Assembly: GCA_044233485.1 (NCBI GenBank)
Contig: JBIIJY010000002.1
Span: 74,047 to 125,874 of the forward strand
Direction: 5' to 3'
Source of the DNA: Minisyncoccia bacterium
GTDB lineage: Bacteria; Patescibacteriota; Minisyncoccia; Phycocordibacterales; UBA6065
Length of the DNA stretch: 51,828 bases
Shown: piece after piece, positions 10,665 through 42,563 of the stretch
Position numbering within the stretch: the stretch's first letter is position 1
How the letters are laid out: the number at the start of each line of letters is the position of its first letter
Translations under genes and position numbers: made by a program
The notes under the pieces: model-generated
The model's input: only the letters and a program-made list of their open reading frames with translations
The model's database searches: none
What the model was told of the DNA's origin: nothing

Positions 10665-10738
10665 AATAGGACTACATTACCAAAAAAACGATAAAATGAA
10701 AGGTTTTTGTTTATTTTATCCTCAGAGTGATTTTATAG

Positions 10739-10936
10739 AGAACGTACGAAGGTACATTCTTGAAGTATGGAACAAAGTGAGCCACTTCCCAGGATCTTTC
10801 CCGCGACTCAAAACTCGCCGTCGCTCGTTTTGGTCTGGGCACCGCCTCGCTATTTTTCGAAGCGAAAAATATAGCTCCGGCGTTCAAGCCTGGACAGAAT
10901 GTACGAAGGTACATTCTTGAAGCATGGAACAAAGTG
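10739..10936 (-). other. tRNA-Thr-linked structured element, class A. Contains the antisense T-loop segment, conserved core and distal duplicate of the tRNA 3' end plus trailer. The proximal repeat copy (10896-10950) extends 14 nt into the tRNA gene, beyond this feature's end
   Basis: 55-bp direct repeat, 10739-10793 vs 10896-10950 (2 mismatches). GTTCAAGCCTGG at 10882-10893 is inverted relative to 10946-10957. Core 10800-10837 is identical to 17247-17284. Confidence 0.8.
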
Positions 10937-11009
10937 AGCCACTTCCCAGGCTTGAACTGGGGACCTACTGTTTACAAAACAGTTGCTCTACCAACTGAGC
11001 TAAAGTGGC
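10937..11009 (-). tRNA. tRNA-Thr (anticodon UGU)
   Basis: Hand-folded cloverleaf: GCCACTT TA GCTC AGTTGGTA GAGC A ACTGT TTTGTAA ACAGT AGGTC CCCAG TTCAAGC CTGGG AAGTGGC T. 73 nt, no encoded CCA. Confidence 0.85.
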
Positions 11010-16974: not shown

Positions 16975-17223
16975 CTAGACCTTCTCGAACCTTGTCTTCT
17001 CTATGCCTTGATAGATGACCTTTTCAAACCACTGATCAAGAGGCCGAGTGAAAAAATTGGCGTCGGCATTCTCGTAGAGTGGCTTATAGACAACCATCCA
17101 GATGTCGTCATTTGAATGAATCGCGAGACCGACCACCTTGTAGAGGTCACCTTTATAGTGGCGGTACCGCTCTCCTGCGACAGGAACTCTCGGAGGTAAC
17201 AGTGGGATTATCCCTTTGGTCAT
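16975..17223 (-). CDS. DUF1653-like small protein
   Basis: GERYRHYKGDLYKVVGLAIHSNDDIWMVVYKPLY pattern as I remember for DUF1653. The ATG lies inside the duplicated tRNA-Asp trailer. Confidence 0.55.
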   Translation of the reverse strand: MTKGIIPLLPPRVPVAGERYRHYKGDLYKVVGLAIHSNDDIWMVVYKPLYENADANFFTRPLDQWFEKVIYQGIEKTRFEKV

Positions 17224-17401
17224 TTTTGCGCGCCCGACCGGACTTGCCCGCGACTCAAAACTCGCCGTCGCTCGTTTTGGTCTGTACCACAGGAGTACTT
17301 CTAGTTTGATAAATCAAACTATGTCGAGCACCGCCTCGCTATGTTTCGGAGCGAAACATATAGCTCCGGCGTTCAAGTCCGAAAAACACTTCGTATTTTT
17401 G
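17222..17401 (-). other. tRNA-Asp-linked structured element, class A. Contains the antisense T-arm segment, conserved core with an extra hairpin, and distal duplicate of the tRNA 3' end. The proximal repeat copy (17395-17419) extends 18 nt into the tRNA gene, beyond this feature's end
   Basis: 25-bp direct repeat, 17222-17246 = 17395-17419. GTTCAAGTCCG at 17371-17381 is inverted relative to 17412-17422. Core blocks 17247-17284 and 17329-17377 match the Thr copy 38/38 and 46/49. Confidence 0.8.
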
Positions 17402-17477
17402 CGCGCCCGACCGGACTTGAACCGGCGACCTCTCCCGTGACAGGGGAGCGCTCTAACCAAAACTGAGCTACGGGCGC
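17402..17477 (-). tRNA. tRNA-Asp (anticodon GUC)
   Basis: GCGCCCG TA GCTC AGTTTTGGTTA GAGC G CTCCC CTGTCAC GGGAG AGGTC GCCGG TTCAAGT CCGGT CGGGCGC G. 76 nt, no encoded CCA. Confidence 0.85.
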
Positions 17478-26602: not shown

Positions 26603-26694
26603 GGAGACGTGGCTGAGCTGGCCGAAAGCGCCTCATTGCTAACGAGGTATCCCGCCTTAAAACGGGATCGGGGGTTCGAATCCCCCCGTCTCCG
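26603..26694 (+). tRNA. tRNA-Ser (anticodon GCU), class II with a long variable arm
   Basis: GGAGACG TG GCTG..AGC G CCTCA TTGCTAA CGAGG TATCCCGCCTTAAAACGGGATC GGGGG TTCGAAT CCCCC CGTCTCC G. There is an A31:C39 mismatch in my fold. No encoded CCA. Confidence 0.8.
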
Positions 26695-26846
26695 CAGGAG
26701 AAAATGTAACAGCGTTACATTTTAGAGAAAGCTCTAGGAGAGCTTTCGTGGGGGATTCGAAAACCTTTTGCGTATAATTTGCAATTTCCTGAGGTAAATT
26801 ATCCAAAAGGTGTACTGATCCTGTAAGGATCGAATCCCCAGGCACC
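26695..26846 (+). other. tRNA-Ser(GCU)-linked structured element, class B
   Basis: Hairpins at 26701-26723 and 26727-26747. GGGGGATTCGAA at 26750-26761 is the exact reverse complement of T-loop/3' T-stem 26675-26686. Nested hairpin 26764-26810. CGAATCCCC at 26831-26839 is a degenerate second copy of the tRNA 3' end. Confidence 0.7.
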
Positions 26847-26869: not shown

Positions 26870-26956
26870 GGAGGCGTGGATGAGTGGTTTAAATCAACGG
26901 TTTACTAAACCGTCGTTCCTTTACCGGAACCGTGAGTTCGAATCTCACCGCCTCCG
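26870..26956 (+). tRNA. Class II tRNA, Ser-type (G73, long variable arm). My fold puts ACU at positions 34-36
   Basis: GGAGGCG TG GAT..ATC A ACGGT TTACTAA ACCGT CGTTCCTTTACCGGAACC GTGAG TTCGAAT CTCAC CGCCTCC G. The 5-bp anticodon stem is perfect. The anticodon call needs tRNAscan-SE. Confidence 0.7.
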
Positions 26957-27131
26957 CATAATAATGAGCTTGCGAATATATTTTGCGTGAGGTGAGAAAG
27001 TGCTGGGAGCACTTTCGTGTGAGATTCGAAAGACGGAATAAAAATTTTGAGCTCAAAATTTTATGAGTCGGGGTCGCGAGCTCCGAGTTGCAACGAGGAG
27101 ACTTGTGACCGAATCTCCTACCGCCTCCGCA
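26957..27131 (+). other. tRNA-Ser-linked structured element, class B
   Basis: Hairpin 26996-27016. GTGAGATTCGAA at 27019-27030 is the exact reverse complement of 26937-26948. 22-nt palindrome at 27041-27062. CGAATCTC at 27110-27117 plus ACCGCCTCCGCA at 27120-27131 (identical to 26947-26958). Confidence 0.75.
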
Positions 27132-27220: not shown

Positions 27221-27961
27221 TTACATGTGGTTCAAAAGACTTTTCTCTTTAATTTCTTTTATACCCTTTGGTAACAGATGGTAAAAACCGTCTTTAAGAG
27301 CGATCAGTTTTTTGGAGACCATGGAAGAGACAGTCTTACTAAATCGAGTCTTGTTGTCATCCTTTGTTTTGGAGAAAAGAAAGTCGAAGTCACGCTTTTC
27401 AGCTGATGAAAGCACCAGTATCTCTTGTCTCACGGTGAGGTCATCTCTTGCGATGAATTCCTCACCTTCAATATCAAAGATAACTGGATAGTTAGGGATA
27501 GCAATCCTGTCTATTATCTTTTGAGCCTCATCCATTGTGTAATTGCCGTAGACACGGATGAACTCGGCGAATATCCAATTTGCGCAAGAGAGAACAAAAC
27601 TTGCATCAATTTTATTTGCATTGAAGTTGCCGAGATGCGCGACGTCACGATTGTTTCTGAAATCAAGGAGTAGTTTTGTTAGTGATGTTACTTTCTGACG
27701 GATGTGCTCGTCGATATTGGCATCGTTTGTGACTTTATTGATAATCGTCGTTTTATCTGCCGCTTTGATGTCTTCACCGAAGGGTGTAATTGGCGTGCTC
27801 AGTAAATGTTGAAAGATACGTAGTACAGCTTCTGCAAATCTGCCACCATTCAATTGAGCCGGTCCACAATCATTCAATTGGAACCGACGCTTTATCTCGG
27901 TGTATTCCTCAAGAAGCTTATCCTCAAGGTTATCAGGAATGGTCGTAAGAATTCTTGTCAT
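27221..27961 (-). CDS. Hypothetical protein with a HEPN-like Rx6H motif (Abi_C/AbiJ-HEPN-like) and a C-terminal winged-helix-like region
   Basis: All-helical N-terminal part with LLLDFRNNRDVAHLGN (R102-H109). C-terminus FSKTVSSMVSKKLIALKDGFYHLLPKG. Last gene of a tightly overlapping four-gene operon. Confidence 0.4.
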   Translation of the reverse strand: MTRILTTIPDNLEDKLLEEYTEIKRRFQLNDCGPAQLNGGRFAEAVLRIFQHLLSTPITPFGEDIKAADKTTIINKVTNDANIDEHIRQKVTSLTKLLLDFRNNRDVAHLGNFNANKIDASFVLSCANWIFAEFIRVYGNYTMDEAQKIIDRIAIPNYPVIFDIEGEEFIARDDLTVRQEILVLSSAEKRDFDFLFSKTKDDNKTRFSKTVSSMVSKKLIALKDGFYHLLPKGIKEIKEKSLLNHM

Positions 27962-28355
27962 GTTTTTTAAAGATGTCCTTCCAATGCTTGCCTAGGATAT
28001 AAGATGCCCGAGTCTCTTTGGATGAATCAACCCAGCCATTTTCCTTCGCACGAGTTGAAAAGGTAGAAGCATAAGGAACACCAATCATCCCAGAGCAGCT
28101 TTTCCAAACAGATTTAATTCGTAGGAGGTCTACCGGCACATCTTCTTTTCCTTTAGCCAGATACGCTGATATAAGGGTGAAGAATTCTTGCCCATTAAAT
28201 CCAGACGAGTATTTTTTGATAAACGCTCTTTCGTTGAGAGAAAAATCTAAACCTGATGCACCAGCAGTGACTGTCGAGGCAACGACACTTTTGGCGAATA
28301 CAGCCTTCTCAAGTTTCTCCAATCTTTCTTTGATTTCAGTAATTTCTTTTTCCAT
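27933..28355 (-). CDS. Hypothetical protein (N-terminal coiled coil)
   Basis: 140-aa ORF, MEKEITEIKERLEKLEKAVF... It overlaps the downstream gene by 29 nt. No family recognised. Confidence 0.5.
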   Translation of the reverse strand: MEKEITEIKERLEKLEKAVFAKSVVASTVTAGASGLDFSLNERAFIKKYSSGFNGQEFFTLISAYLAKGKEDVPVDLLRIKSVWKSCSGMIGVPYASTFSTRAKENGWVDSSKETRASYILGKHWKDIFKKHDKNSYDHS

Positions 28356-28360
28356 AGTAT

Positions 28361-28702
28361 TTATTTTCTCTTAGAATAGACCCATTTCTTAGGAGTTCCA
28401 TCACGTTCCAATATTTGTTTCGGTGGCTTTACTAGATTCAAGAGATTCATCGATACAGATGTGTTCTTGAAAGATGTTTGACCTCGCTTTTTTAATTTAT
28501 CCATAATCTGAGGCATACCCTTAGGCTCATCAAAGAAACCCTCTCCCACAAGTTCCTGAATAGCCCCAATACAGTTGGTTGCCTTTTTTGTACTACTCTT
28601 AGTAACATACTTTTGAATCGGAGCTGTCCCAGCGGGAGCTCCCTCAAGTTCATTCAGCAATGCTCTTATTTGAGCGACAATTTCATTAGTCGTTTTTTTC
28701 AT
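28361..28702 (-). CDS. Hypothetical protein
   Basis: I chose the ATG at 28702 (MKKTTNEIVAQIRALLNELEG...). The longer track start at 28771 would overlap the upstream gene by 86 nt. No family recognised. Confidence 0.45.
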   Translation of the reverse strand: MKKTTNEIVAQIRALLNELEGAPAGTAPIQKYVTKSSTKKATNCIGAIQELVGEGFFDEPKGMPQIMDKLKKRGQTSFKNTSVSMNLLNLVKPPKQILERDGTPKKWVYSKRK

Positions 28703-29102
28703 GGTTGTTGAGAATATTCTTAGTCTTGATTTTCGAGACTTGATAGCTGGTAATGTAGTAACCTGTGTCATCAGAAGTCACCAGGCTACCTCCCTTGGTT
28801 TCTTTTAGAAGCTTAAGTGTCGGGAGTACGCTTCCTTTTGATATACCGGTTTCTTCAATAATATCTTTCGGCTTAACTCGATCCGTTTCGATTTCACCTA
28901 AAAGAAACAGAGCTTTTTTCCCCAAGAGGAAAAGGACGATTCTATTCTTGAGTGATTGCTTTAGAGTGGAATCAAGAAAGATTATGTTCTTACTCGTCTT
29001 GTTAATTTTAATAAATGGAGACAGGAGATCAAAAAGCTCGGTGGCGTTTATATCATTGTCGTCCGTAAACAGTTGCTTCAAAACTTCGTGTTTATCAGTC
29101 AT
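28686..29102 (-). CDS. Hypothetical protein with a winged-helix-like segment
   Basis: IIEETGISKGSVLPTLKLLKETKGGSLVTSDDTGYYIT resembles a MarR/ArsR-type wHTH. First gene of the operon. Confidence 0.45.
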   Translation of the reverse strand: MTDKHEVLKQLFTDDNDINATELFDLLSPFIKINKTSKNIIFLDSTLKQSLKNRIVLFLLGKKALFLLGEIETDRVKPKDIIEETGISKGSVLPTLKLLKETKGGSLVTSDDTGYYITSYQVSKIKTKNILNNHEKND

Positions 29103-29576
29103 GTGTATATGGGTTAATTAATAATTTCAATCGCTCGCTACAGCGGGAGGTTGATTTGAAAAGATTATAGCATAGGTCAAAGATTATTTGCAAGTACTTG
29201 AAGTAAATACTATTTTTATAATGGTGATATTTGCTCGAATTTATAGGGTTTTGGTGTCATATTGAGCATTGCTGTTCCTTTACTAAACATAATCATTTTT
29301 ATATCTATCCTATTATGTCCTTTAAAATAAGGAGATTATCAATATAATAAAGATTGTAAAACTGTCTATTTATAAAGAAACATATATTGATTATCAATAT
29401 CTTTAATCAAAATAGCCATAATACCTATGTTTATAAGGGCTTTTAGAGGGTATCTAAATTTTCTTATAATCAATAGTGTTCTTTCATATCTGAAACCTAC
29501 TTATTTAAAGTACTAAAAAACACCCTATTTTGGCTATAAAATGATCCCAAACATGTAAAAAGCTCTGTTTCTAAGA

Positions 29577-29837
29577 TTATATCACTCTTGTTTCTATCGT
29601 TACTACCTTTGCAGTCACCTTTATCTTCGATTTGAAGCACCCCATTAGCTCACGTTTCTCCTCGTTTGAACCGTCCATGAGGATGTACTTGGCGTAAGTC
29701 TTCAGGTCGATTTCCTTATGTGTTCCTCCTGACTTGCTCATGCCAAGCACTCCTCGGTTGAATTTGTTGTATCGCTTAAGCTCTTCGTTGAACTTGATCT
29801 GTATGCCAGTCTGGTAATAAAACAACATCTTTTGCAT
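29577..29837 (-). CDS. Small hypothetical protein. The start is uncertain; it may be the shifted C-terminus of the upstream orphan
   Basis: 86-aa ORF overlapping the upstream ORF by 62 nt. Alternative ATG at 29741 (MSKSGGTHKEIDL...). Confidence 0.35.
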   Translation of the reverse strand: MQKMLFYYQTGIQIKFNEELKRYNKFNRGVLGMSKSGGTHKEIDLKTYAKYILMDGSNEEKRELMGCFKSKIKVTAKVVTIETRVI

Positions 29838-30954
29838 AAACAGTAATTAATCCAATTTGGTTTATACCAAAGTGGATTAATCCCCATCGAGTAAAACCAA
29901 TCCCTCCGGTATCTTTTGTGTACCAAGACAAACTTGTTTCTTTGTTAGCTAAAATGGAATTAACTACTTCAGGTTTGAACCACAAGTATTTTCCACTATC
30001 AATCAGGTTTTTAGCTTTTTCTTTGCTCCCAGCGGCATCAACAATGTACGAATACTCTTCGTGCGCTTCATCATTTAAAATAATAGAACTCTTTAGTGCA
30101 GGAAAAACAAAATCATTTTTCCACACTTCTCCTTCAATCCTGTAAAGTTTTTTTCCTTTAAAACCTCGAATCCAATTTTTACTTTCAACATTTGTTTCGT
30201 TAGTTGAAAATGGATACTCTGGGACATCCTCATTAAAGTCAATATTTGTTCTACCTACATGAAATATAGCCATTTTCTCACCAAATCTATGACTACTGCC
30301 CTCATGTATTGGCCACATCCTACCACTCCACTTTATTCCATCTTTATTATCAATAATCTTTTCTAATTCCCAGTCAACTTTTATTTCGTTCTCCAAGACT
30401 TCAGTCCTAGACTTGTAGGAAGAAATAAATAAAATTCTATCTCTCACACATAGATAGTCTTTTAAGTAGTTCAATCTAATTAAAATCTCATCAACGCATC
30501 CATTCTGATTTTTATGTAACTTTATTACTTCCTCATGTCCTCTATTGTATGCAAACCAATTATCGTTCTCTTGAACCAATTCAAGCGTTGAAAGTAAGTC
30601 TGGGCTAATATACCAATTGTTACAATACTCACCGCCAATTTCATGGGCAATTATTAAATTTTCACCCTCTATTCCATCACATTCAAAATAATGTGCTGGT
30701 TTATACTCATCCTCGTAAGGATTTCCTTTATGTCCTCTGATCAATCCGACATCTATCCACTCTAATTTTTTTGCTTTTTCAGCATCCTCCTTTTTAATCA
30801 AAATGCTTGTGGAACCAAAATATTCTTCTTTAAAGCCTAAACAGCCATATTCACCTTCGCTTATGTATTTTCTTGAAGATCTCAAGGGTACCCAGACTTG
30901 CTTATCCGCTTTTTGATCAATGTAGTCTTTCAGTTCAAACCACTCTTTTTGCAT
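29776..30954 (-). CDS. Orphan 392-aa protein, no recognisable motif, low GC
   Basis: Long ORF in AT-rich DNA. The N-terminal 46 codons of the track ORF overlap the VOC gene, so I chose the ATG at 30954 (MQKEWFELKDY...). The ATG at 30981 is an alternative. Confidence 0.55.
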   Translation of the reverse strand: MQKEWFELKDYIDQKADKQVWVPLRSSRKYISEGEYGCLGFKEEYFGSTSILIKKEDAEKAKKLEWIDVGLIRGHKGNPYEDEYKPAHYFECDGIEGENLIIAHEIGGEYCNNWYISPDLLSTLELVQENDNWFAYNRGHEEVIKLHKNQNGCVDEILIRLNYLKDYLCVRDRILFISSYKSRTEVLENEIKVDWELEKIIDNKDGIKWSGRMWPIHEGSSHRFGEKMAIFHVGRTNIDFNEDVPEYPFSTNETNVESKNWIRGFKGKKLYRIEGEVWKNDFVFPALKSSIILNDEAHEEYSYIVDAAGSKEKAKNLIDSGKYLWFKPEVVNSILANKETSLSWYTKDTGGIGFTRWGLIHFGINQIGLITVYAKDVVLLPDWHTDQVQRRA

Positions 30955-30959
30955 AGTAA

Positions 30960-31352
30960 TTAGGTTGTTATCCTCGTACATATCTCCAACAAGAATCCAT
31001 TTATGTCGCGGAGGTAGCCGACGGTTTGACCCCAAGGCTTTTGAGTTGGCTCTTTTACTATTTCCGCTCCCGCTTCGACCGCTTGTTTCCATGCACTTTC
31101 AATATCATCTGCCACAAAGGTAATTTCAAAAGGTGAAGGTAATTCTTGTGAGTATCGCCTTTCAATAGCGATGCCGTTGTATTCAGCAACACTGTATGAG
31201 GCAAAGGCAAGAGTGGTACCACCGGTTTCAAGCTCGCCGTAGTCTTTTTCTGGAGTGATGAATTTTTGTGCAATGCCAAAAGCCTTCACATAAAACGCGA
31301 GTGTCGCTTCGACATTTTCTACATATAAAATTGTGTATCCGTATTTGATCAT
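30960..31352 (-). CDS. VOC (glyoxalase/bleomycin-resistance/dioxygenase) family protein
   Basis: MIKYGYTILYVENVEATLAFYVKAFG...KPWGQTVGYLRDINGFLLEI. Confidence 0.75.
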   Translation of the reverse strand: MIKYGYTILYVENVEATLAFYVKAFGIAQKFITPEKDYGELETGGTTLAFASYSVAEYNGIAIERRYSQELPSPFEITFVADDIESAWKQAVEAGAEIVKEPTQKPWGQTVGYLRDINGFLLEICTRITT

Positions 31353-31356
31353 ATAT

Positions 31357-31791
31357 TTACACCGTAAAATTAAAATGATTCACCGACACCTCTTCACCTC
31401 CAAGTGCGCGATAAAATGCGACCGCACCACCATCCTCAGATTCGGCTTCTACAAAAATTGTTTCTATGCCTCTCTTTTTAGCTTCTAGCTTGAGGTGTTC
31501 TATGAGAGCTTTGCCGAGTCCTTGCTTTTGGTATTCTGGGTGGACGGCTATGTCATAGATAAAAAATTCTTTCGTGCCATGAATGGGCATCATCTCCATA
31601 GCAACAAGCCCGCCAACGATTTTGGTATCTATAAATGCGCCGAGTATAAGAGTCTTGTCATCTTCTAACATCTTCGATAGATATTCATCCGTGACGCTGT
31701 ACTCTTGCTCAAAGGTGAGAGCAAAGACTGATACAAGTGCCTTTACATCACTGAGACTATGTATTTTTTGTATATCTGCTCGCTCTTTCAT
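31357..31791 (-). CDS. GNAT N-acetyltransferase (AAC(3)-I-like layout)
   Basis: FFIYDIAVHPEYQKQGLGKALIEHLKLEAKKRGIETIFVEAESEDGGAVAFYRALG. Confidence 0.65.
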   Translation of the reverse strand: MKERADIQKIHSLSDVKALVSVFALTFEQEYSVTDEYLSKMLEDDKTLILGAFIDTKIVGGLVAMEMMPIHGTKEFFIYDIAVHPEYQKQGLGKALIEHLKLEAKKRGIETIFVEAESEDGGAVAFYRALGGEEVSVNHFNFTV

Positions 31792-31793
31792 AA

Positions 31794-32003
31794 TTACTTC
31801 AAAAGTTGATCTACGCTCACTCCAAGCACTTTGGCGACCTTTTCTATTGTGCTAAGTGTAAGATTTTGTTTGCCGTTCTCAACATTACTGATATACGCTC
31901 GATCTAACCCTAACTCTCGGCAAATGTCGCCTTGCGACATACCTTTCTCAGTGCGTATCTTTTTCATGTTCTCGCCAAATTTTTGTGCTGTTGATTTTGC
32001 CAT
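31794..32003 (-). CDS. XRE-family helix-turn-helix transcriptional regulator
   Basis: KIRTEKGMSQGDICRELGLDRAYISNVENGKQNLTLSTIEKVAKVLGV. I chose the ATG at 32003 to avoid overlap with the upstream gene. Confidence 0.8.
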   Translation of the reverse strand: MAKSTAQKFGENMKKIRTEKGMSQGDICRELGLDRAYISNVENGKQNLTLSTIEKVAKVLGVSVDQLLK

Positions 32004-32007
32004 AGAT

Positions 32008-32775
32008 TTATCGCTGTGCATGTTTAAGAATCCATCTCGTATGGTCGTTCTTTGACTTTGACCAGCGAGTGATGATTTTCTCGGCCTCCTTAGGGTTTAC
32101 CTTGATCCAGTCACGCAAGTGATTTGCGACTGATCTTTTAACAAACTTTATCTCATCTTCTTTAAGAAGCTCAAGAATTTCAAATACTGGCCTCGGGTTA
32201 CTGATCCATACGTCGAGTTTTTGCGCCCATGGGAGCTTTGGGCGGAGTCCCTCTGATGCAAGCCGGCGGAGGTGAAAGTTTTTACTCGTTGCCCATTTGG
32301 CACACACAGCGATTATCTTTTCAGGATATTTACGAGCGAAAGGACGAATAGCGTATTCACCGGTGTTTCTCTTAGTAATTTCTTCGATTGCTTTTATCGA
32401 TAATGCAAAATGTTCTAGCCCATACCTCTCGACAAATTTTCCTACGGGCATAAGCCAATAAAAATTAGTAAACATCCCGGTTTCTTCTAGGTTCTCTGGG
32501 CCGAGTATTTGTAAAAGAATCTCTAACGCTTCGGGATATTTTTCTGGTAAATACTTGTGTAGCGCATCAGCTACTATTTCCACTCTCTGTGTATACACCT
32601 TCCCCACTACTTCTTTTTTCACACTTACACAAAAATCTTTTTTTGGAAAACTTTTATATACAGGGACGATCTTATCTGAAAGCAGAATCGCCAAATCTTC
32701 ACCGAATGCTTCTGTGATCGAAATCTTGCCAGTTGTAGGGTTTACGAAATTATTTTTTGAGGTGGATTTTGCCAT
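32008..32775 (-). CDS. DNA alkylation repair protein (AlkC/AlkD-type HEAT-like repeat)
   Basis: NTGEYAIRPFARKYPEKI...NFHLRRLASEGLRPKLPWAQKL...KFVKRSVANHLRD. Confidence 0.7.
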   Translation of the reverse strand: MAKSTSKNNFVNPTTGKISITEAFGEDLAILLSDKIVPVYKSFPKKDFCVSVKKEVVGKVYTQRVEIVADALHKYLPEKYPEALEILLQILGPENLEETGMFTNFYWLMPVGKFVERYGLEHFALSIKAIEEITKRNTGEYAIRPFARKYPEKIIAVCAKWATSKNFHLRRLASEGLRPKLPWAQKLDVWISNPRPVFEILELLKEDEIKFVKRSVANHLRDWIKVNPKEAEKIITRWSKSKNDHTRWILKHAQR

Positions 32776-32794
32776 AACGCAGGTGAACTCATCG

Positions 32795-33610
32795 TTACTT
32801 GAGAACCTTACTTATTATCCACTGGAAAAGCCAAAGAGGGTGTGTTTTCCGCATCAAGATGAGTAATTTTGCAGTGGTATCTACTTTATACCTTAGTCTC
32901 GTACTATTGTCATTTACTGCTTCATATATCACTTCTGCTACAACCATTGGATCCTTGCCACCATTCCCTCTAGCTATCATGTTTTCAATATATGGGTGCC
33001 AGTAGCTATCGTACACCGTTACTGTACTACTCTCAGCACGCACAAGTGAAGTCGAAAAGAAGTTGGTACGTATCGTACCCGGCTCGATGACCTTGACCTG
33101 AATATTAAAATTCTTGAGTTCATAATATAGATCTTCAGAAAGACCTTCTATTGCGTGTTTACTCGCCGCATAAATACTCATAAATGGAAGAGTGATCCTC
33201 CCGAGCATTGAAGCAATATTTATAATTTTCCCTCCTTTATTTTCTCGGAAGTGAGGCAGTGCAATACGAATAGTATTTATGGTTCCAAGCACATTTGCAT
33301 CAAACTGCGCACGCACCTGATCTTCGGTCGAATTTTCTAGCGGACCGAGAAGACCGTAACCGGCGTTGTTTACTATCGCATCTATTTTCCCAAACTTTTT
33401 AATTCCAGCATTGAAGGCTGTAGAAATACTTTCCGAGTTTGTCACATCTACTTCTGCAAGGAGTAATGAGTCTGAGGTCTTGAACTCTGTTTCTTTTTCA
33501 GTATTCTTCATCGTCGCAACAACATTCCACTTATTTTTTAGGAAGTATTTTACCGTTGCTCTACCAATACCAGAAGAAGTTCCTGTTACAAATACTGTTC
33601 TCTTTTCCAT
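32795..33610 (-). CDS. Short-chain dehydrogenase/reductase (SDR)
   Basis: TVFVTGTSSGIGRAT, NNAG, YAASKHAIEG. I chose the ATG at 33610 with TATAAT at 33617-33622 lying 6 nt upstream; the track start is TTG at 33628. Confidence 0.85.
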   Translation of the reverse strand: MEKRTVFVTGTSSGIGRATVKYFLKNKWNVVATMKNTEKETEFKTSDSLLLAEVDVTNSESISTAFNAGIKKFGKIDAIVNNAGYGLLGPLENSTEDQVRAQFDANVLGTINTIRIALPHFRENKGGKIINIASMLGRITLPFMSIYAASKHAIEGLSEDLYYELKNFNIQVKVIEPGTIRTNFFSTSLVRAESSTVTVYDSYWHPYIENMIARGNGGKDPMVVAEVIYEAVNDNSTRLRYKVDTTAKLLILMRKTHPLWLFQWIISKVLK

Positions 33611-33628
33611 GTATCTATTATAAACCAA

Positions 33629-34390
33629 TTATCGTCTCGCTCTAATCTTCCCGATAGAGAATACAAACAAGATCAAACACACGATAACCGTCGCGATTAT
33701 ACTCGGATACTGCCCATCGAAACCACTAGGTGATACGTGTTTGAAAAGTATCCATGAATAAGCCCAGATGAGCACCGTGCCGTAGGCAATATTGCTGTCT
33801 TTGCGCATCCGTAATATGCCGATCAATGCTCCCACGAGCAAGATAATACTCGTCCAGATAAAGTCAGCTATACCAAAACCGTTCCAGCCGATACCAACAA
33901 GAAACACTGTGATATTTGCGATCGATGCGACCGTAATCCAACCAAAGTAAATACTAAAAGGAGCCCAGACCAACAGTTTAGTAAGCGACGTAAACTGCTC
34001 AGCACGAAGAATGTCGGCAATCTTTATCAGGAGAGTGAGCAGTGTCGCCATGATGAGCACTGAAAGACCAATATAGTCATAGTGCCAAGCAAATATCCAT
34101 GAGATATTTGCAAGCGAAGTGGCGATAAACAGCGGATTGATTTTCTGGAGGAGGTGTTCCGTCTTTTGATCCTTCTTCACGAATTGGTAGAGCACATACC
34201 CACCAAGCAAAAGATAGATCAGACCCCAAATAGAAAAGGCTGGGCCGGCCGGAGCGAAAAGATTGGGATAGGCGCTTGATATATCACCCGTAGAGCGATT
34301 ATTAATCGGCAAACCATTTGCCAAAAAATTTACTGCTACCATGGCGACATAGGTAATCGCGGTTACTATTTTTGTATAAATATTTTTCAT
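33629..34390 (-). CDS. TspO/MBR-related tryptophan-rich membrane protein
   Basis: Seven-TM-like ORF with LANGLPINNRSTGDISSAYPNLFAPAGPAFSIWGLIYLLLG. Confidence 0.5.
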   Translation of the reverse strand: MKNIYTKIVTAITYVAMVAVNFLANGLPINNRSTGDISSAYPNLFAPAGPAFSIWGLIYLLLGGYVLYQFVKKDQKTEHLLQKINPLFIATSLANISWIFAWHYDYIGLSVLIMATLLTLLIKIADILRAEQFTSLTKLLVWAPFSIYFGWITVASIANITVFLVGIGWNGFGIADFIWTSIILLVGALIGILRMRKDSNIAYGTVLIWAYSWILFKHVSPSGFDGQYPSIIATVIVCLILFVFSIGKIRARR

Positions 34391-34467
34391 AAATTTATTT
34401 CAAGGGTTGATCCACTTTCATTCGAAGGGCTTTGGCGACTTTTTTCGAGACCGAGTCTACTAACACA

Positions 34468-34897
34468 TCAACTCCAAAGAGAAAACTTTTTTGTAATCGA
34501 GTTTACTTCAGTAGCGGGTCCATAGAAGAGGGCGCCAAGGTATTCAAAGTCTTTCTCTTCCTTCAGAGAAATATGCGTAGAAAGCTCATCATCATGTGAA
34601 GTATCGAGCATCTCTCTTGGAAAATCCACATACAGCACATTCTTCTGAGTGCGTACCGCCTCCAGTGCCTTTCGCATTTCTACCGGGTTCCCTTTTTTAA
34701 TTATAAAGCCGTACCGAGCGATACCGCGATGATCGACACCTGAAGCATCTTTCAAGACTTCGCGCCCCATCAATTCAGCATCTTTATTTGCTCCGAGAGC
34801 GACAGCGAGATGCCCGACCACATTCATTGCTTTGCCACGTCTCTAGACCATCACTCACCACGCAAACTATTTTCCGATTTTTATACTCGTAAGTCAT
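34468..34897 (-). pseudogene. DUF2000-like protein, apparently frameshifted near 34828-34840
   Basis: The ATG at 34897 gives MTYEYKNRKIVCVVSDGLETWQ.. in one frame. The 119-aa ORF (MNVVGHLAVALGANKD...) continues in another frame. The join is at TGGCAAAGCAATG. Together they resemble a full-length DUF2000. Confidence 0.45.
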
Positions 34898-42153: not shown

Positions 42154-42213
42154 AAAAAACTCCGCCCTACACAGACAGACTTTTACGTTCTGTACATGTA
42201 GGGCGGAGTTTTT
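42154..42213. terminator. Long-stem bidirectional terminator downstream of rnpB
   Basis: AAAAAACTCCGCCCTACA-(25 nt)-TGTAGGGCGGAGTTTTT. Confidence 0.7.
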
Positions 42214-42216
42214 CTT

Positions 42217-42563
42217 GAGCACATCTATAAGCCGAATTCTGTACCATCATATCTTCATATGCTGGCAGTAAGCATTTATCTGGGATGACCATTACTGGTC
42301 ACCTCGAGCGGTTCTCTCGTACGTATTGCTACGCTTGAGCACGACCTTGCATGGGAGTAAGGATTTAGCCGTTGCACCTTGTAGTTTCCCACAAGCTCAC
42401 CCTGACGGGTGTCCTGCCCTTTCGAGCACAGACGTCTCTGTTCGCACCTCGCACATTACTGTGGATGGGTATTACCCACTACCGCACTCTTCCTTACGGA
42501 AGCCAAGTTCGGACTTTCCTCTCCAGAGAGTTTCCCCTCCAAAGCGCTTACTCAATGTGCTAA
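42217..42563 (-). ncRNA. rnpB: RNase P RNA (bacterial type A)
   Basis: On the reverse strand: GGAGAGGAAAGTCCGAAC (P4 5' strand) near the 5' end and ACAGAATTCGGCTTATAG (P4 3' strand) near the 3' end. P1 pairing AGCACAT/ATGTGCT. GGGAAAC and GAAAGGGCAGG loops. The ends are approximate. Confidence 0.85.

Follow-up and report, generated by a model that had tools for sequence, protein, structure and literature searches.

The question raised by the tRNA-Thr(UGU) locus of this contig is what lies between a tRNA gene and a second, displaced copy of that gene's own 3′ end. The window referred to here is the whole stretch of DNA analyzed, 51,828 nt in length. A preliminary description drawn from the letters of the window reported, behind the tRNA gene, an antisense copy of its T-loop, a conserved core, and a near-identical duplicate of its 3′ end, and each of these is present where it was placed. 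Read on the tRNA strand, the locus comprises the following features.

10936/7–11009, minus strand: tRNA-Thr(UGU), no encoded CCA (ARAGORN; Rfam tRNA, 69.8 bits)
10896–10950, minus strand: repeat copy 1, S(a) (direct repeat)
10896–10917, minus strand: C1 trailer hairpin, 9 bp, AGAATGTAC-CTTC-GTACATTCT (sequence)
10893>10882, minus strand: antisense arm V2+GAAC, CCAGGCTTGAAC, exact reverse complement of GTTCAAGCCTGG in the T-arm
10800–10881, minus strand: type-A core, three-way junction (covariance-model match 10788–10894, 88.8 bits; covariation in alignments A2 and A4)
10739–10799, minus strand: junction AAAGAT, then repeat copy 2, S(b) (sequence; direct repeat)
10683–10720, minus strand: hairpin then T-run, downstream of the whole unit (inverted repeat; alignment with relative L121)

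The T-arm of this tRNA is CCCAG-TTCAAGC-CTGGG, and V2+GAAC complements G53–G64 (T-loop and 3′ T-stem) exactly over 12 nt, within an inverted repeat that reaches 22 nt at 82%. Copy S(a) contains tRNA positions ∼60–73, a 7-nt spacer, a V1-like segment (CCATGCTTC, a degenerate complement of the acceptor 3′ strand), and hairpin C1, which had been given as 8 bp but measures 9 bp and matches a 25–26-nt hairpin module seen in 45/98 copies elsewhere; this hairpin and the sequence before it are part of a longer antisense arm. Copy S(b) contains the tRNA 3′ end from the T-loop on, followed by spacer, V1-like segment, and hairpin; it matches S(a) (10739–10793 against 10896–10950, 53/55 identical), and it pairs with V2 to form the closing stem P1. 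The 55-nt duplicate belongs to a 157-nt unit present in ∼1.35 copies. The hairpin and T-run at 10683–10720, conserved in L121, are likely the terminator of a tRNA-Thr–element transcript, and in the window neither a terminator-like site nor a separating promoter is found between the tRNA and the element. Open reading frames 10696–10920 and 10711–10932 exist mechanically; the region beneath them is conserved as base-pair covariation and not as codons, in agreement with the initial view that they are not credible genes.

The four tRNA loci of the window

The same arrangement had been proposed behind all four tRNA genes of the window, and the other three loci are as follows.

17401–17477, minus strand: tRNA-Asp(GUC) (ARAGORN; Rfam)
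17222–17385, minus strand: type-A element after tRNA-Asp (repeat comparison; covariance model)
17371–17385, minus strand: TTTT, V2, and GAAC of the Asp element
17328–17370, minus strand: left core of the Asp element
17285–17327, minus strand: extra 43-nt domain of the Asp element, recurring in L048
17247–17284, minus strand: right core of the Asp element
17222–17246, minus strand: S(b) duplicate of the Asp element, CAAGTCCGGTCGGGCGCGCAAAAAT
26603–26695, plus strand: tRNA-Ser(GCU) (ARAGORN; Rfam)
26724–26846, plus strand: type-C element after tRNA-Ser(GCU) (sequence)
26870–26957, plus strand: tRNA-Ser, anticodon ACU according to ARAGORN (ARAGORN; Rfam)
26988–27131, plus strand: type-B element after tRNA-Ser(ACU) (sequence; type-A model match 27019–27119)

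Both halves of the Thr core recur after tRNA-Asp as described, the 36-nt right half being identical where 0 chance matches are expected, and the two cores differ at 3 positions in 85 nt, a near-identity that could be due to gene conversion. Under a covariance model based on 39 copies taken from other genomes, the Thr element scores 88.8 bits, the Asp element 44.9 + 19.5 bits in a split match, and the tRNA-Ser(ACU) element 37.7 bits (E = 1e-7), the score of a distant homologue. This type-B element has a V1-like segment and C1 hairpin, then V2 and GAA (GTGAGATTCGAA, 27019–27030), the core GAAAGACGGAAU..GAGUCGGGGUC..GUGAC, and S(b) (CGAATCTCCTACCGCCTCCGCA, 27110–27131); type-B copies also occur in L047, L060, L094, L101, and L102. 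After tRNA-Ser(GCU) the model recognizes only the closing stem P1 (11.4 bits). There the C1 hairpin ends at 26749, V2 and GAA (GGGGGATTCGAA) occupy 26750–26761, and a different core, which has GTAC and a hairpin (loop CCUGUAAGG) at its end, precedes a decayed S(b) (CGAATCCCCAGGCACC, 26831–26846); this type-C core is also present in L031, L087, L027, and L052. By sequence and model comparison, then, the architecture stands behind four of four tRNA genes, three of the elements being demonstrably homologous and the fourth, after tRNA-Ser(GCU), being of another, degenerate core type.

Fold of the core and matching of the arms to each tRNA

The core is a three-way junction composed of P2 (CGCC:GGCG with a GGA/GA internal loop and a hairpin), a GGUG linker, P3 (CCC:GGG), and P4 (a GAC...GUC hairpin with a bulged A). 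In the core alignment, whose seed pattern forced 24 nucleotides of the aligned copies to be invariant, 93.5% of cells are paired and 27 of 31 pairs have changed on both sides, that is, in a compensatory manner. The observed covariation is reached in 0 of 500 shuffles, and slid controls collapse. Within the core helices G:U combinations exceed A:C by 42 to 11, indicating that the tRNA-sense strand is the folding strand. Both properties expected of a structured functional single strand, whether RNA or single-stranded DNA, are present here, namely covariation beyond chance and strand asymmetry. The core measures ∼85 nt and the elements ∼100–250 nt, and at least three unrelated core types share identical boundaries.

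A full copy, read on the tRNA strand, consists of an optional loop or terminator hairpin, V1, C1, V2-GAA(C), core, and S(b). V1 is the exact complement of the tRNA acceptor 3′ strand, C1 is a constant hairpin of 25–26 nt, V2-GAA(C) complements the T-loop and 3′ T-stem of the neighboring tRNA by exact Watson-Crick pairing, and S(b) repeats the tRNA in sense orientation, starting at T-loop position 57 and ending shortly after the discriminator. V2 is present in nearly all copies, and V1 in 45/98 as compared to 11/98 in a shuffled control, at a fixed spacing of 25–26 nt from V2. In 11 informative cases V2 tracks the 3′ strand of the T-stem and in none the 5′ strand; for V1 and the acceptor 3′ strand the count is 11 to 2. 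An origin of the left arm as a copy of the tRNA 5′ strand, left over from a tandem tRNA duplicate, is rejected because the arm tracks the 3′ strand wherever the stems hold G-U pairs or mismatches.

V2 pairs with S(b), closing the core, and V1 with the acceptor strand of this copy, so that the unit mimics the acceptor/T-stem minihelix of its own tRNA. As judged from these complementarities, the unit is a minihelix mimic in which C1 replaces the tRNA body and the core replaces the T-loop. The predicted pairing has the marks of a tRNA-like structure, with a 5′ strand that would pair with the 3′ strands of both acceptor and T-stem and a 3′ end at the discriminator; the mimic includes the discriminator, plus CCA in those cases in which it is encoded in the tRNA gene.

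T-loop position 56|57 forms the right junction in every case, and the left junction lies at the feet of variable hairpins or terminators, a junction pattern compatible with a retroelement of TPRT/SINE type. Outside the window the direct repeat has a median length of 21 nt from position 57, with identity usually stopping near the tRNA end, and the duplication ranges from 10 to 88 nt across loci. The acceptor part of S(b) is perfectly preserved in 28/58 loci whose trailers are randomized. A loop motif resembling AGCGAAGCGA is found in 17 of 100 tRNA-to-V2 intervals, compared to 0.6 expected, with an orientation ratio of 17 to 1.

Distribution, copy forms, and searches for relatives

A single pattern scan of 185,579 species genomes, on which the distribution rests, returns more than 117 loci in more than 100 species, and the phylum-named ones are all Patescibacteria (CPR) except for three MAG labels. 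A same-strand tRNA is located ≤400 nt upstream of 100 of 125 cores (median distance 65 nt; 41 anticodons), and the upstream tRNA is intact in 100/125 cases. Within the loci 128/206 tRNAs carry the signal and 78/206 are without any, and within syntenic clusters the identity of the element-carrying tRNA varies.

Contig look-ups and a protein search supplied the orthologous loci; no relative was found in a metagenome scan with the protein adjoining tRNA-Asp. In the relative L121 the tRNA-Thr gene and trailer are present with no core, and the window has exactly one extra 157-nt unit, which provides the comparison of orthologous tRNA-Thr loci that had been suggested at the outset. The orthologous tRNA-Asp locus lacks the core in L122 and has it in L123. 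Close relatives differ in whether they have the core and one repeat unit. Element-like left parts remain in the core-less loci (V1 and C1 in L121, the ACGAAGTG loop motif in L122), and these loci may therefore be deletion products of direct-repeat recombination and not virgin sites. The 55-nt repeat is for the same reason not accepted as a target-site duplication at a virgin site.

Copies occur in several forms. Tandem copies are found in L056, L061, L086, L088, L097, and L112, type A nested with type B in L094 and L101, truncated copies in L013, L033, L049, and L078, and stand-alone units after terminators of unrelated genes in L063, L078, and L014. In L053 a tRNA-Ser(GGA) gene is interrupted in its T-loop, and a same-strain contig breaks inside the core. 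At many other loci a hairpin and T-run separate tRNA and element.

The statement that the element matches no known RNA family holds against Rfam 15: at gathering score the window yields only tRNA and RNase P, and at E ≤ 10 the element regions give chance-level miRNA and snoRNA matches far below gathering scores. The core pattern has 0 matches in IMG/VR viral contigs, and BLAST against phage and plasmid collections matches the tRNA part and nothing else. The full-text literature searched, including the TIGR-Tas, 224-motif, and Caldiarchaeum tRNA-disruption papers, does not describe the element. The element has no coding capacity. A Pfam scan of 30 ORFs finds no transposase, integrase, or reverse transcriptase in the window, and clustering of 2,866 ORFs from 117 loci finds no recurrent recombinase beside the elements, the only recurrent families being spurious ORFs over the element and syntenic XerC/YraN genes. 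No autonomous or larger version is found when distant 3′-end repeats are sought up to 8 kb away; the only far-downstream repeats that enclose sequence are in L095 (a 4.2-kb exact assembly repeat) and L004 (a 400-nt cassette). An island is located beside a tRNA-Ser gene, and its first four genes adjoin a large serine recombinase in L124.

Competing explanations and known systems

The explanation we favor, to which a probability of about 0.5 is assigned, is that the copies are an uncatalogued, Patescibacteria-specific family of small (∼100–160 nt), non-coding mobile elements at tRNA gene 3′ ends. The element would spread as a folded single strand of tRNA sense, either RNA or single-stranded DNA. 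Its arms would display the 3′ half of the tRNA gene in copy and would steer joining to the dyad of the T-loop palindrome (TTC|GAA, position 56|57), so that the tRNA upstream stays intact and a 3′ end, displaced or copied, comes to lie downstream; the enzyme would be a host enzyme or one encoded elsewhere in the genome. This proposal is supported by the more than 117 Patescibacteria loci with 41 anticodons, the gain or loss of the core at tRNA-Thr and tRNA-Asp, the tandem, nested, truncated, and stand-alone copies, the covariation and strand bias of a core whose arms are matched to each tRNA, the interrupted tRNA-Ser, the restriction of the signal to part of the tRNAs, the contig break inside the core, and the lack of coding capacity and of a known relative. 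Against it stand the absence of a candidate enzyme in the window or recurrently beside copies, the lack of an autonomous version among the loci, the left parts kept at the "empty" loci L121 and L122, which may be deletion products, and the possible gene conversion between the Thr and Asp cores. Conservation of core and arms across phyla and of S(b) in 28/58 loci fits a host function equally well. Furthermore, transfer to a different tRNA would mean rewriting V1, V2, and S(b) together. Five mechanisms were worked through on paper, namely DDE-type staggered cuts, target-primed reverse transcription, hairpin capping followed by snap-back synthesis, a serine-recombinase GA crossover, and IS91 GTTC targeting; none yields all three target-matched segments in one step, and none is therefore claimed.

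Host function is the subject of a second explanation, considered unlikely, in which the element is part of the tRNA transcript and acts as an RNA switch or alternative 3′ half: the antisense arm would either sequester the real tRNA 3′ half or pair with the downstream copy and close the junction, whose folding, perhaps dependent on a ligand or protein, would decide tRNA maturation or which 3′ end is used. In the window one terminator follows the whole Thr unit with none, and no promoter, inside it, and transcription of tRNA and element together is plausible there. The predicted fold of the 275-nt Thr transcript has an energy of −107 kcal/mol (z = −6.3), and in this minimum-free-energy model the T-loop of the real tRNA pairs with the antisense arm and the 5′ acceptor strand of the tRNA with S(b); the antisense pairing first suggested for this locus, with either the tRNA T-arm or the downstream copy, is thermodynamically plausible. 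In riboswitch expression platforms the 5′ strand of a junction-closing P1 can also pair elsewhere, and the P1-closed three-way junction of the element is, by analogy, of this architecture. A core that covaries across phyla and an S(b) that is intact where trailers have diverged are likewise in favor. However, many other loci have a canonical hairpin and T-run between tRNA and element, 78/206 tRNAs are without signal, and the carrier differs within syntenic clusters; a regulator would not be expected to occur as tandem, nested, truncated, or stand-alone copies, and at least three unrelated cores have common boundaries. A broader functional possibility, similarly unlikely, is a tRNA-specific RNA device in which a cis antisense "splint" covering 56|57 to the acceptor and a spare 57–73 fragment are mounted on a junction domain; it might exchange, repair, or withhold the tRNA 3′ half, or might be a small ribozyme or guide recombining at the T-loop dyad.

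Integrase attachment scars, with attL and attR as the tRNA 3′ duplications and the core as leftover attP arm DNA of a tyrosine or serine integrase, are improbable and largely refuted. The T-loop is a classic sublocation for tRNA-targeting integrases, and the direct repeat of the tRNA 3′ end begins there and usually extends about as far as the tRNA does (median 21 nt). Other insertions also enter the tRNA tails of these genomes, as the L004 cassette indicates, and the island at tRNA-Ser described above is a further point in favor. Of the miniature integrase-type insertion first proposed for this locus, core-less relatives and a junction fixed at 56|57 are borne out, but the integrase is not, with none in or near 117 loci. 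The finding that would have made the locus a simple deletion scar, a large island with an integrase enclosed by these repeats in related genomes, is not borne out at the 117 loci, which show neither an integrase nor a larger island. Moreover, attP arms show no base-pair covariation with G:U strand bias, integrases are site-specific whereas one core serves 41 anticodons, an antisense arm that tracks the tRNA would have no role, and a deeply conserved core is unexplained.

It is also improbable that the segment from the upstream position 57 to the core end is a self- or protein-spliced T-loop intron, with the antisense arm as internal guide for both exon ends and the upstream 3′ end as a back-up exon that makes splicing optional. 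In group I internal guides the complement of the 3′ exon lies 5′ of the complement of the 5′ exon end, an order that the element shares (3′-exon part 5′ of the GUUC part); the L053 tRNA-Ser(GGA) is valid only once the element is removed, and the predicted fold builds a tRNA from the 5′ half and S(b). Nevertheless, in-silico removal gave a valid tRNA at only 1 of ∼20 loci lacking an intact upstream tRNA, Rfam shows no group I, group II, or ribozyme similarity, and stand-alone units have no 5′ exon. To our knowledge, a core of ∼85 nt is far below the size of any known self-splicing intron, and we know of no bulge-helix-bulge splicing endonuclease in bacteria.

Improbable as well is a processed tRNA-like small RNA serving a tRNA-directed activity, as splint and donor for repair of T-loop-cleaved tRNA, toxin decoy, or guide for a modifying enzyme, for which the minihelix mimic with discriminator and encoded CCA and the union of a complement spanning 56|57 with a spare 57–73 fragment can be cited, and against which stand its purely structural derivation, the lack of a linked enzyme gene, and the hallmarks of mobile DNA.

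Comparison with known systems places the element in none of the RNA or mobile-element classes tested, as far as sequence and architecture indicate. It shares with tRNA-targeting integrative elements the T-loop boundary, the intact upstream tRNA, and the displaced 3′ duplicate further down; unlike them it is ∼100 nt, has no integrase, uses one core for dozens of tRNAs, and alone has a covarying single-strand core and an antisense 3′-end copy. As in attC and CTX-phi attP(+) with XerCD, one strand folds into an imperfect hairpin imitating a double-stranded site, with extrahelical features (C1 in the element) and strand-asymmetric conservation, but the target is the tRNA T-loop and not attI or dif, the arms are rewritten per tRNA, and the likeness is an analogy of mechanism only, with no demonstrated IntI or Xer partner. 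MITEs, REP/BIME, Correia, and RPE sequences are equally small, non-coding, multi-copy, structured, and assembly-breaking, and some enter hairpins or RNA genes. MITEs are recognized by constant terminal inverted repeats and a short duplication of fixed length, whereas in the element the terminal inverted repeats are target-derived and vary with the tRNA, the flanking duplication is long and of changing length (∼17 to >55 nt, with a measured range of 10–88 nt), and the target is a tRNA position.

With guide RNAs (group I/II introns, IS110 bridge RNA, IS200/605 omega RNA) the element shares a scaffold bearing a target complement across the insertion point, and the omega-RNA guide, like S(b), is flanking target sequence; it lacks a recognized catalytic core, a linked recombinase or nuclease, and programmable internal loops, and unlike guide-bearing mobile RNAs it leaves the gene uninterrupted except in L053. 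It has one small GGA/GA loop and no adjacent ORF, in contrast to IS110 bridge RNA, and with an intact upstream tRNA in 100/125 cases and no intron-model match it differs from group I/II introns. The tmRNA domain, YrlA Y RNAs, viral 3′ tRNA-like structures, and the Mauriceville transcript also mimic an acceptor/T minihelix with a free 3′ end, and the Neurospora Mauriceville retroplasmid recombines with tRNA genes through captured tRNA sequence, which the element resembles. The element, in contrast, copies the neighboring tRNA, one per gene, and has a conserved domain in place of the T-loop; no link to charging, Ro60, or reverse transcriptase is known for it.

CPR bacteria (Patescibacteria) constitute a large share of bacterial diversity and have genomes of ∼1 Mb, and many of their tRNA genes carry this strongly conserved structured element despite the tiny genomes. 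The element breaks assemblies at tRNA loci, yields spurious ORF calls, including "protein families" over the element, and explains tRNA fragments and some seemingly missing or interrupted tRNAs in CPR metagenome-assembled genomes. A mobile element of this kind, non-coding, with arms written per tRNA and an insertion point at the symmetry center of the universal T-loop, would imply a targeting chemistry that is perhaps programmable. A functional one would add a new layer to tRNA maturation or repair, and the device described above, if real, would represent tRNA biology of a new type, restricted to CPR bacteria.

Elements behind the tRNA genes of the window

The preliminary description of the element behind tRNA-Thr is accurate in all material respects, including the repeat, the perfect antisense segment, the core halves after tRNA-Asp and the layouts after the tRNA-Ser genes. 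Its components are as follows.

Components of the tRNA-Thr element (window numbering)
11009>10936, minus: tRNA-Thr(UGU)
Directly 3' of tRNA-Thr, minus: spacer, 7 nt
Between spacer and hairpin, minus: degenerate segment complementary to the 3' strand of the acceptor stem
10917>10896, minus: hairpin, 9 bp
Between hairpin and antisense segment, minus: GT dinucleotide
10893>10882, minus: antisense segment CCAGGCTTGAAC, perfect complement of tRNA-Thr G53-G64
3' of CCAGGCTTGAAC, minus: core, 82 nt
Between core and second repeat copy, minus: AAAGAT junction
10793>10739, minus: second copy of tRNA end, spacer and hairpin, 53/55 match to the first

Both core halves recur downstream of tRNA-Asp, where the right half (36 nt) is identical to that of the tRNA-Thr copy (chance matches, 0 in 100 shuffles) and the cores differ at 3/85 positions. 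The two guide differences between these copies are exactly those required to match their respective, similar T-arms. The Asp copy carries an additional 43-nt domain (UCGAC-hairpin-GAAGURCUCYUGUGGUA), a module that recurs at locus L048. The layout after both tRNA-Ser genes is like that of tRNA-Thr with different sequence, and CCA is unencoded in all four tRNA genes. ARAGORN assigns the second tRNA-Ser (26870-26957) the anticodon ACU; its A34 is unusual for bacteria, and its anticodon loop may be atypical. A bacterial class A RNase P RNA lies at 42212-42563 on the minus strand (119.5 bits).

The Rfam comparison proposed in the preliminary description was run and gave no match to the element, viral contigs likewise gave none, matches in phage and plasmid records are confined to the tRNA itself, and literature searches turned up no description. 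No recombinase, reverse transcriptase or nuclease was found in the window, none recurs beside the elements among the matches listed, and no larger autonomous version was found. None of the known classes that were tested accommodates the element.

Arms matched to the tRNA and a conserved fold

Scanning 185,579 species, each represented by a single genome, with the pattern GAACGCCGGAGC-N15-45-GCGAGGCGGTGC yielded at least 117 loci. The 9 nt 5' of GAAC, forming the antisense arm V2, track the 3' T-stem strand and T-loop positions 57-60; among T-stems that contain a wobble or mismatch, V2 corresponds to the Watson-Crick complement of the 3' strand in 11 cases and to a copy of the 5' strand in none, with 14 ties. 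V1, which is complementary to the 3' strand of the acceptor stem, is present in 45/98 copies versus 11/98 in the shuffled control, also tracks the 3' strand (11 vs 2), usually ends 0-4 nt past the discriminator (at times up to 20 nt), and is separated from V2 by a gap of 25-26 nt consisting of the fixed-size hairpin C1. The right junction is fixed at 56|57, the downstream sense copy S(b) invariably starting at T-loop position 57, where the palindrome TTC|GAA is centred. The full unit therefore mimics its own tRNA's acceptor/T minihelix, C1 replacing the tRNA body and the core the T-loop. At 17/100 loci (0.6 expected; strand 17 vs 1) the stretch between tRNA and V1 contains a loop motif resembling AGCGAAGCGA, and there the genuine tRNA 3' end likewise lies within an element-built hairpin.

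When 39 copies are aligned, the consensus has 31 pairs, 21 of which show compensatory changes. Across 98 distinct copies 93.5% of cells are paired and 27/31 pairs show changes on both sides, the 24 search-pattern nucleotides being invariant by ascertainment. These values are attained in none of 500 shuffles, and pairing falls to 37-46% when the partners are shifted by 1-3 columns. The consensus is a three-way junction.

Consensus fold of the element
P1: antisense arm paired with the downstream copy of the tRNA end
GAA(C): between P1 and P2
P2: 3-4 bp, with covariation from one core type to another; GGA/GA internal loop and variable hairpin
GGUG linker: between P2 and P3
P3: CCY:RGG, with C-G to U-A covariation
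P4: with bulged A

Within the core helices G:U exceeds A:C (42 vs 11), and therefore the strand under structural selection is the tRNA-sense strand, either as RNA or as single-stranded DNA; P1 lacks this bias (15 vs 13). A covariance model derived from copies in other genomes detects the window Thr (88.8 bits) and Asp copies, which have type A cores, and also the tRNA-Ser(ACU) element (37.7 bits, E = 1e-7), so that the type B core of the latter (GAAAGACGGAGC..GAGUCGGGGUC..GUGAC) is homologous. Behind tRNA-Ser(GCU) the core is of another kind (type C); it terminates in GUAC plus a hairpin whose loop is CCUGUAAGG, and it recurs at other loci.

Distribution, gain and loss

Among the matches listed, all phylum-named loci belong to Patescibacteria (Saccharibacteria, Paceibacterota, Kaiser-, Taylor-, Uhr-, Woese-, Komeili-, Moranii-, Yanofsky-, Jorgensen- and Nomurabacteria), except three (L001, L018, L045) from MAGs labelled by third parties 'uncultured Gammaproteobacteria', probably through mislabelling or mis-binning. 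The window organism itself is assigned to Candidatus Paceibacterota by the nearest named relative of a neighbouring protein. A same-strand tRNA lies at most 400 nt upstream of 100/125 cores in these matches (median 65 nt; 41 anticodons), the remainder being mostly at locus edges or genuine stand-alone copies. Only 128/206 tRNAs of the sampled loci carry any element signal, and core identity within a genome is usually 80-86%. Mechanical ORFs over the element (window 10696-10932 and equivalents) form a BLAST cluster spanning 20 loci; 'hypothetical proteins' that databases derive from the element are therefore likely spurious.

Two orthologous comparisons were possible. At tRNA-Thr, relative L121, whose neighbouring protein shares 76% identity and whose gene order is the same, has the tRNA with its spacer, V1-like segment and hairpin but lacks V2, core and S(b); the window has exactly one additional 157-nt unit. 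At tRNA-Asp, relative L122 (84%) lacks the core, whereas L123 (77%) carries a copy of standard form, 106 nt long, with the same junction as the window. Both differences are polymorphisms of gain or loss; since element-like left parts persist at the two core-less loci, each locus may reflect a deletion between the direct repeats and not a virgin site.

Copies occur in tandem arrays (L056, L061, L086, L088, L097, L112), nested as type A with type B (L094, L101), truncated, and as stand-alone V...S(b) units right behind terminators of unrelated genes (L063, L078, L014). At L053 tRNA-Ser(GGA) is interrupted in the T-loop with no intact 3' end upstream, the occupied tRNAs vary in a syntenic Gly-Arg-Pro cluster, and a same-strain contig terminates within a core. 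Such behaviour, like the occupancy of only 128/206 tRNAs, is a hallmark of mobile DNA.

Other insertions were observed at tRNA genes. L121 (6330-6640, orthologous to window ~11010) has a 79-aa GIY-YIG ORF and a GC-rich hairpin in the tRNA-Thr D-loop, with the first ~15 nt of the tRNA and ~8 nt upstream duplicated on the left, a mirror of the 3'-end elements; a second GIY-YIG ORF lies immediately 3' of tRNA-Trp in L023. Directly behind the tRNA-Ser(ACU) element begins a low-GC (0.36-0.41) accessory gene block (window 27221-34827), the first four genes of which recur in relatives with different neighbours and in L124 (1-3560) adjoin a large serine recombinase, with T-loop-like inverted repeats CCACTCGGGATTCGAAC / CCCGAGTGGGTTCGAAC at the block end; it is probably a separate island likewise using tRNA-tail or T-loop-like sites. 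Upstream of stand-alone elements in L010, L016, L070 and L106 is a common promoter-like end (..TAGAATACCCTTATG..) of another inserted element, which appears to have replaced the tRNA body, leaving the last few tRNA nucleotides (compare L070 with L024). In L004 (3600-4030) a cassette of ~400 nt that contains a 96-aa ORF of its own lies 3' of S(b), flanked by a 30-nt duplicate of the core right end and tRNA 3' end. The 4,229-bp exact direct repeat in L095 (655-954 and 4884-5183), including tRNA-Pro and its element, probably reflects either misassembly or a small unit in circular or tandem form.

Mobile element or tRNA switch

The best-supported reading, to which we give a probability of about one half, is that these non-coding elements are mobile, specific to tRNA tails, form a new family and act as a folded tRNA-sense single strand. 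The main alternative, a host-functional switch co-transcribed with the tRNA, is consistent with the single predicted transcription unit containing tRNA, element and S(b) in the window, with the perfect S(b) acceptor strand kept at 28/58 loci with randomised trailers, and with the predicted minimum-free-energy fold of the full Thr transcript, in which the genuine T-loop pairs with the antisense arm and the tRNA 5' strand joins the downstream copy to form the acceptor stem. However, terminators intervene at many loci and the copies show the hallmarks of mobile DNA noted above, and we consider a switch unlikely. The earlier interpretation, which had offered integrase-type insertions, antisense gating and guide-like RNAs, is partly supported; plain integrase scars, T-loop introns and guide or spare-part RNAs are less likely.

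As a mobile element, the unit would use its arms to display the tRNA 3' half as a duplex and to steer joining at the T-loop dyad, a putative likeness to folded integron attC and CTX-phi attP(+); alternatively, an RNA copy of the unit would be the intermediate. No mechanism was derived by which V1, V2 and S(b) would all be rewritten in a single step to suit another tRNA; core gene conversion together with slow guide evolution between similar T-arms, as for Asp and Thr in the window, may be sufficient for matching new tRNAs.
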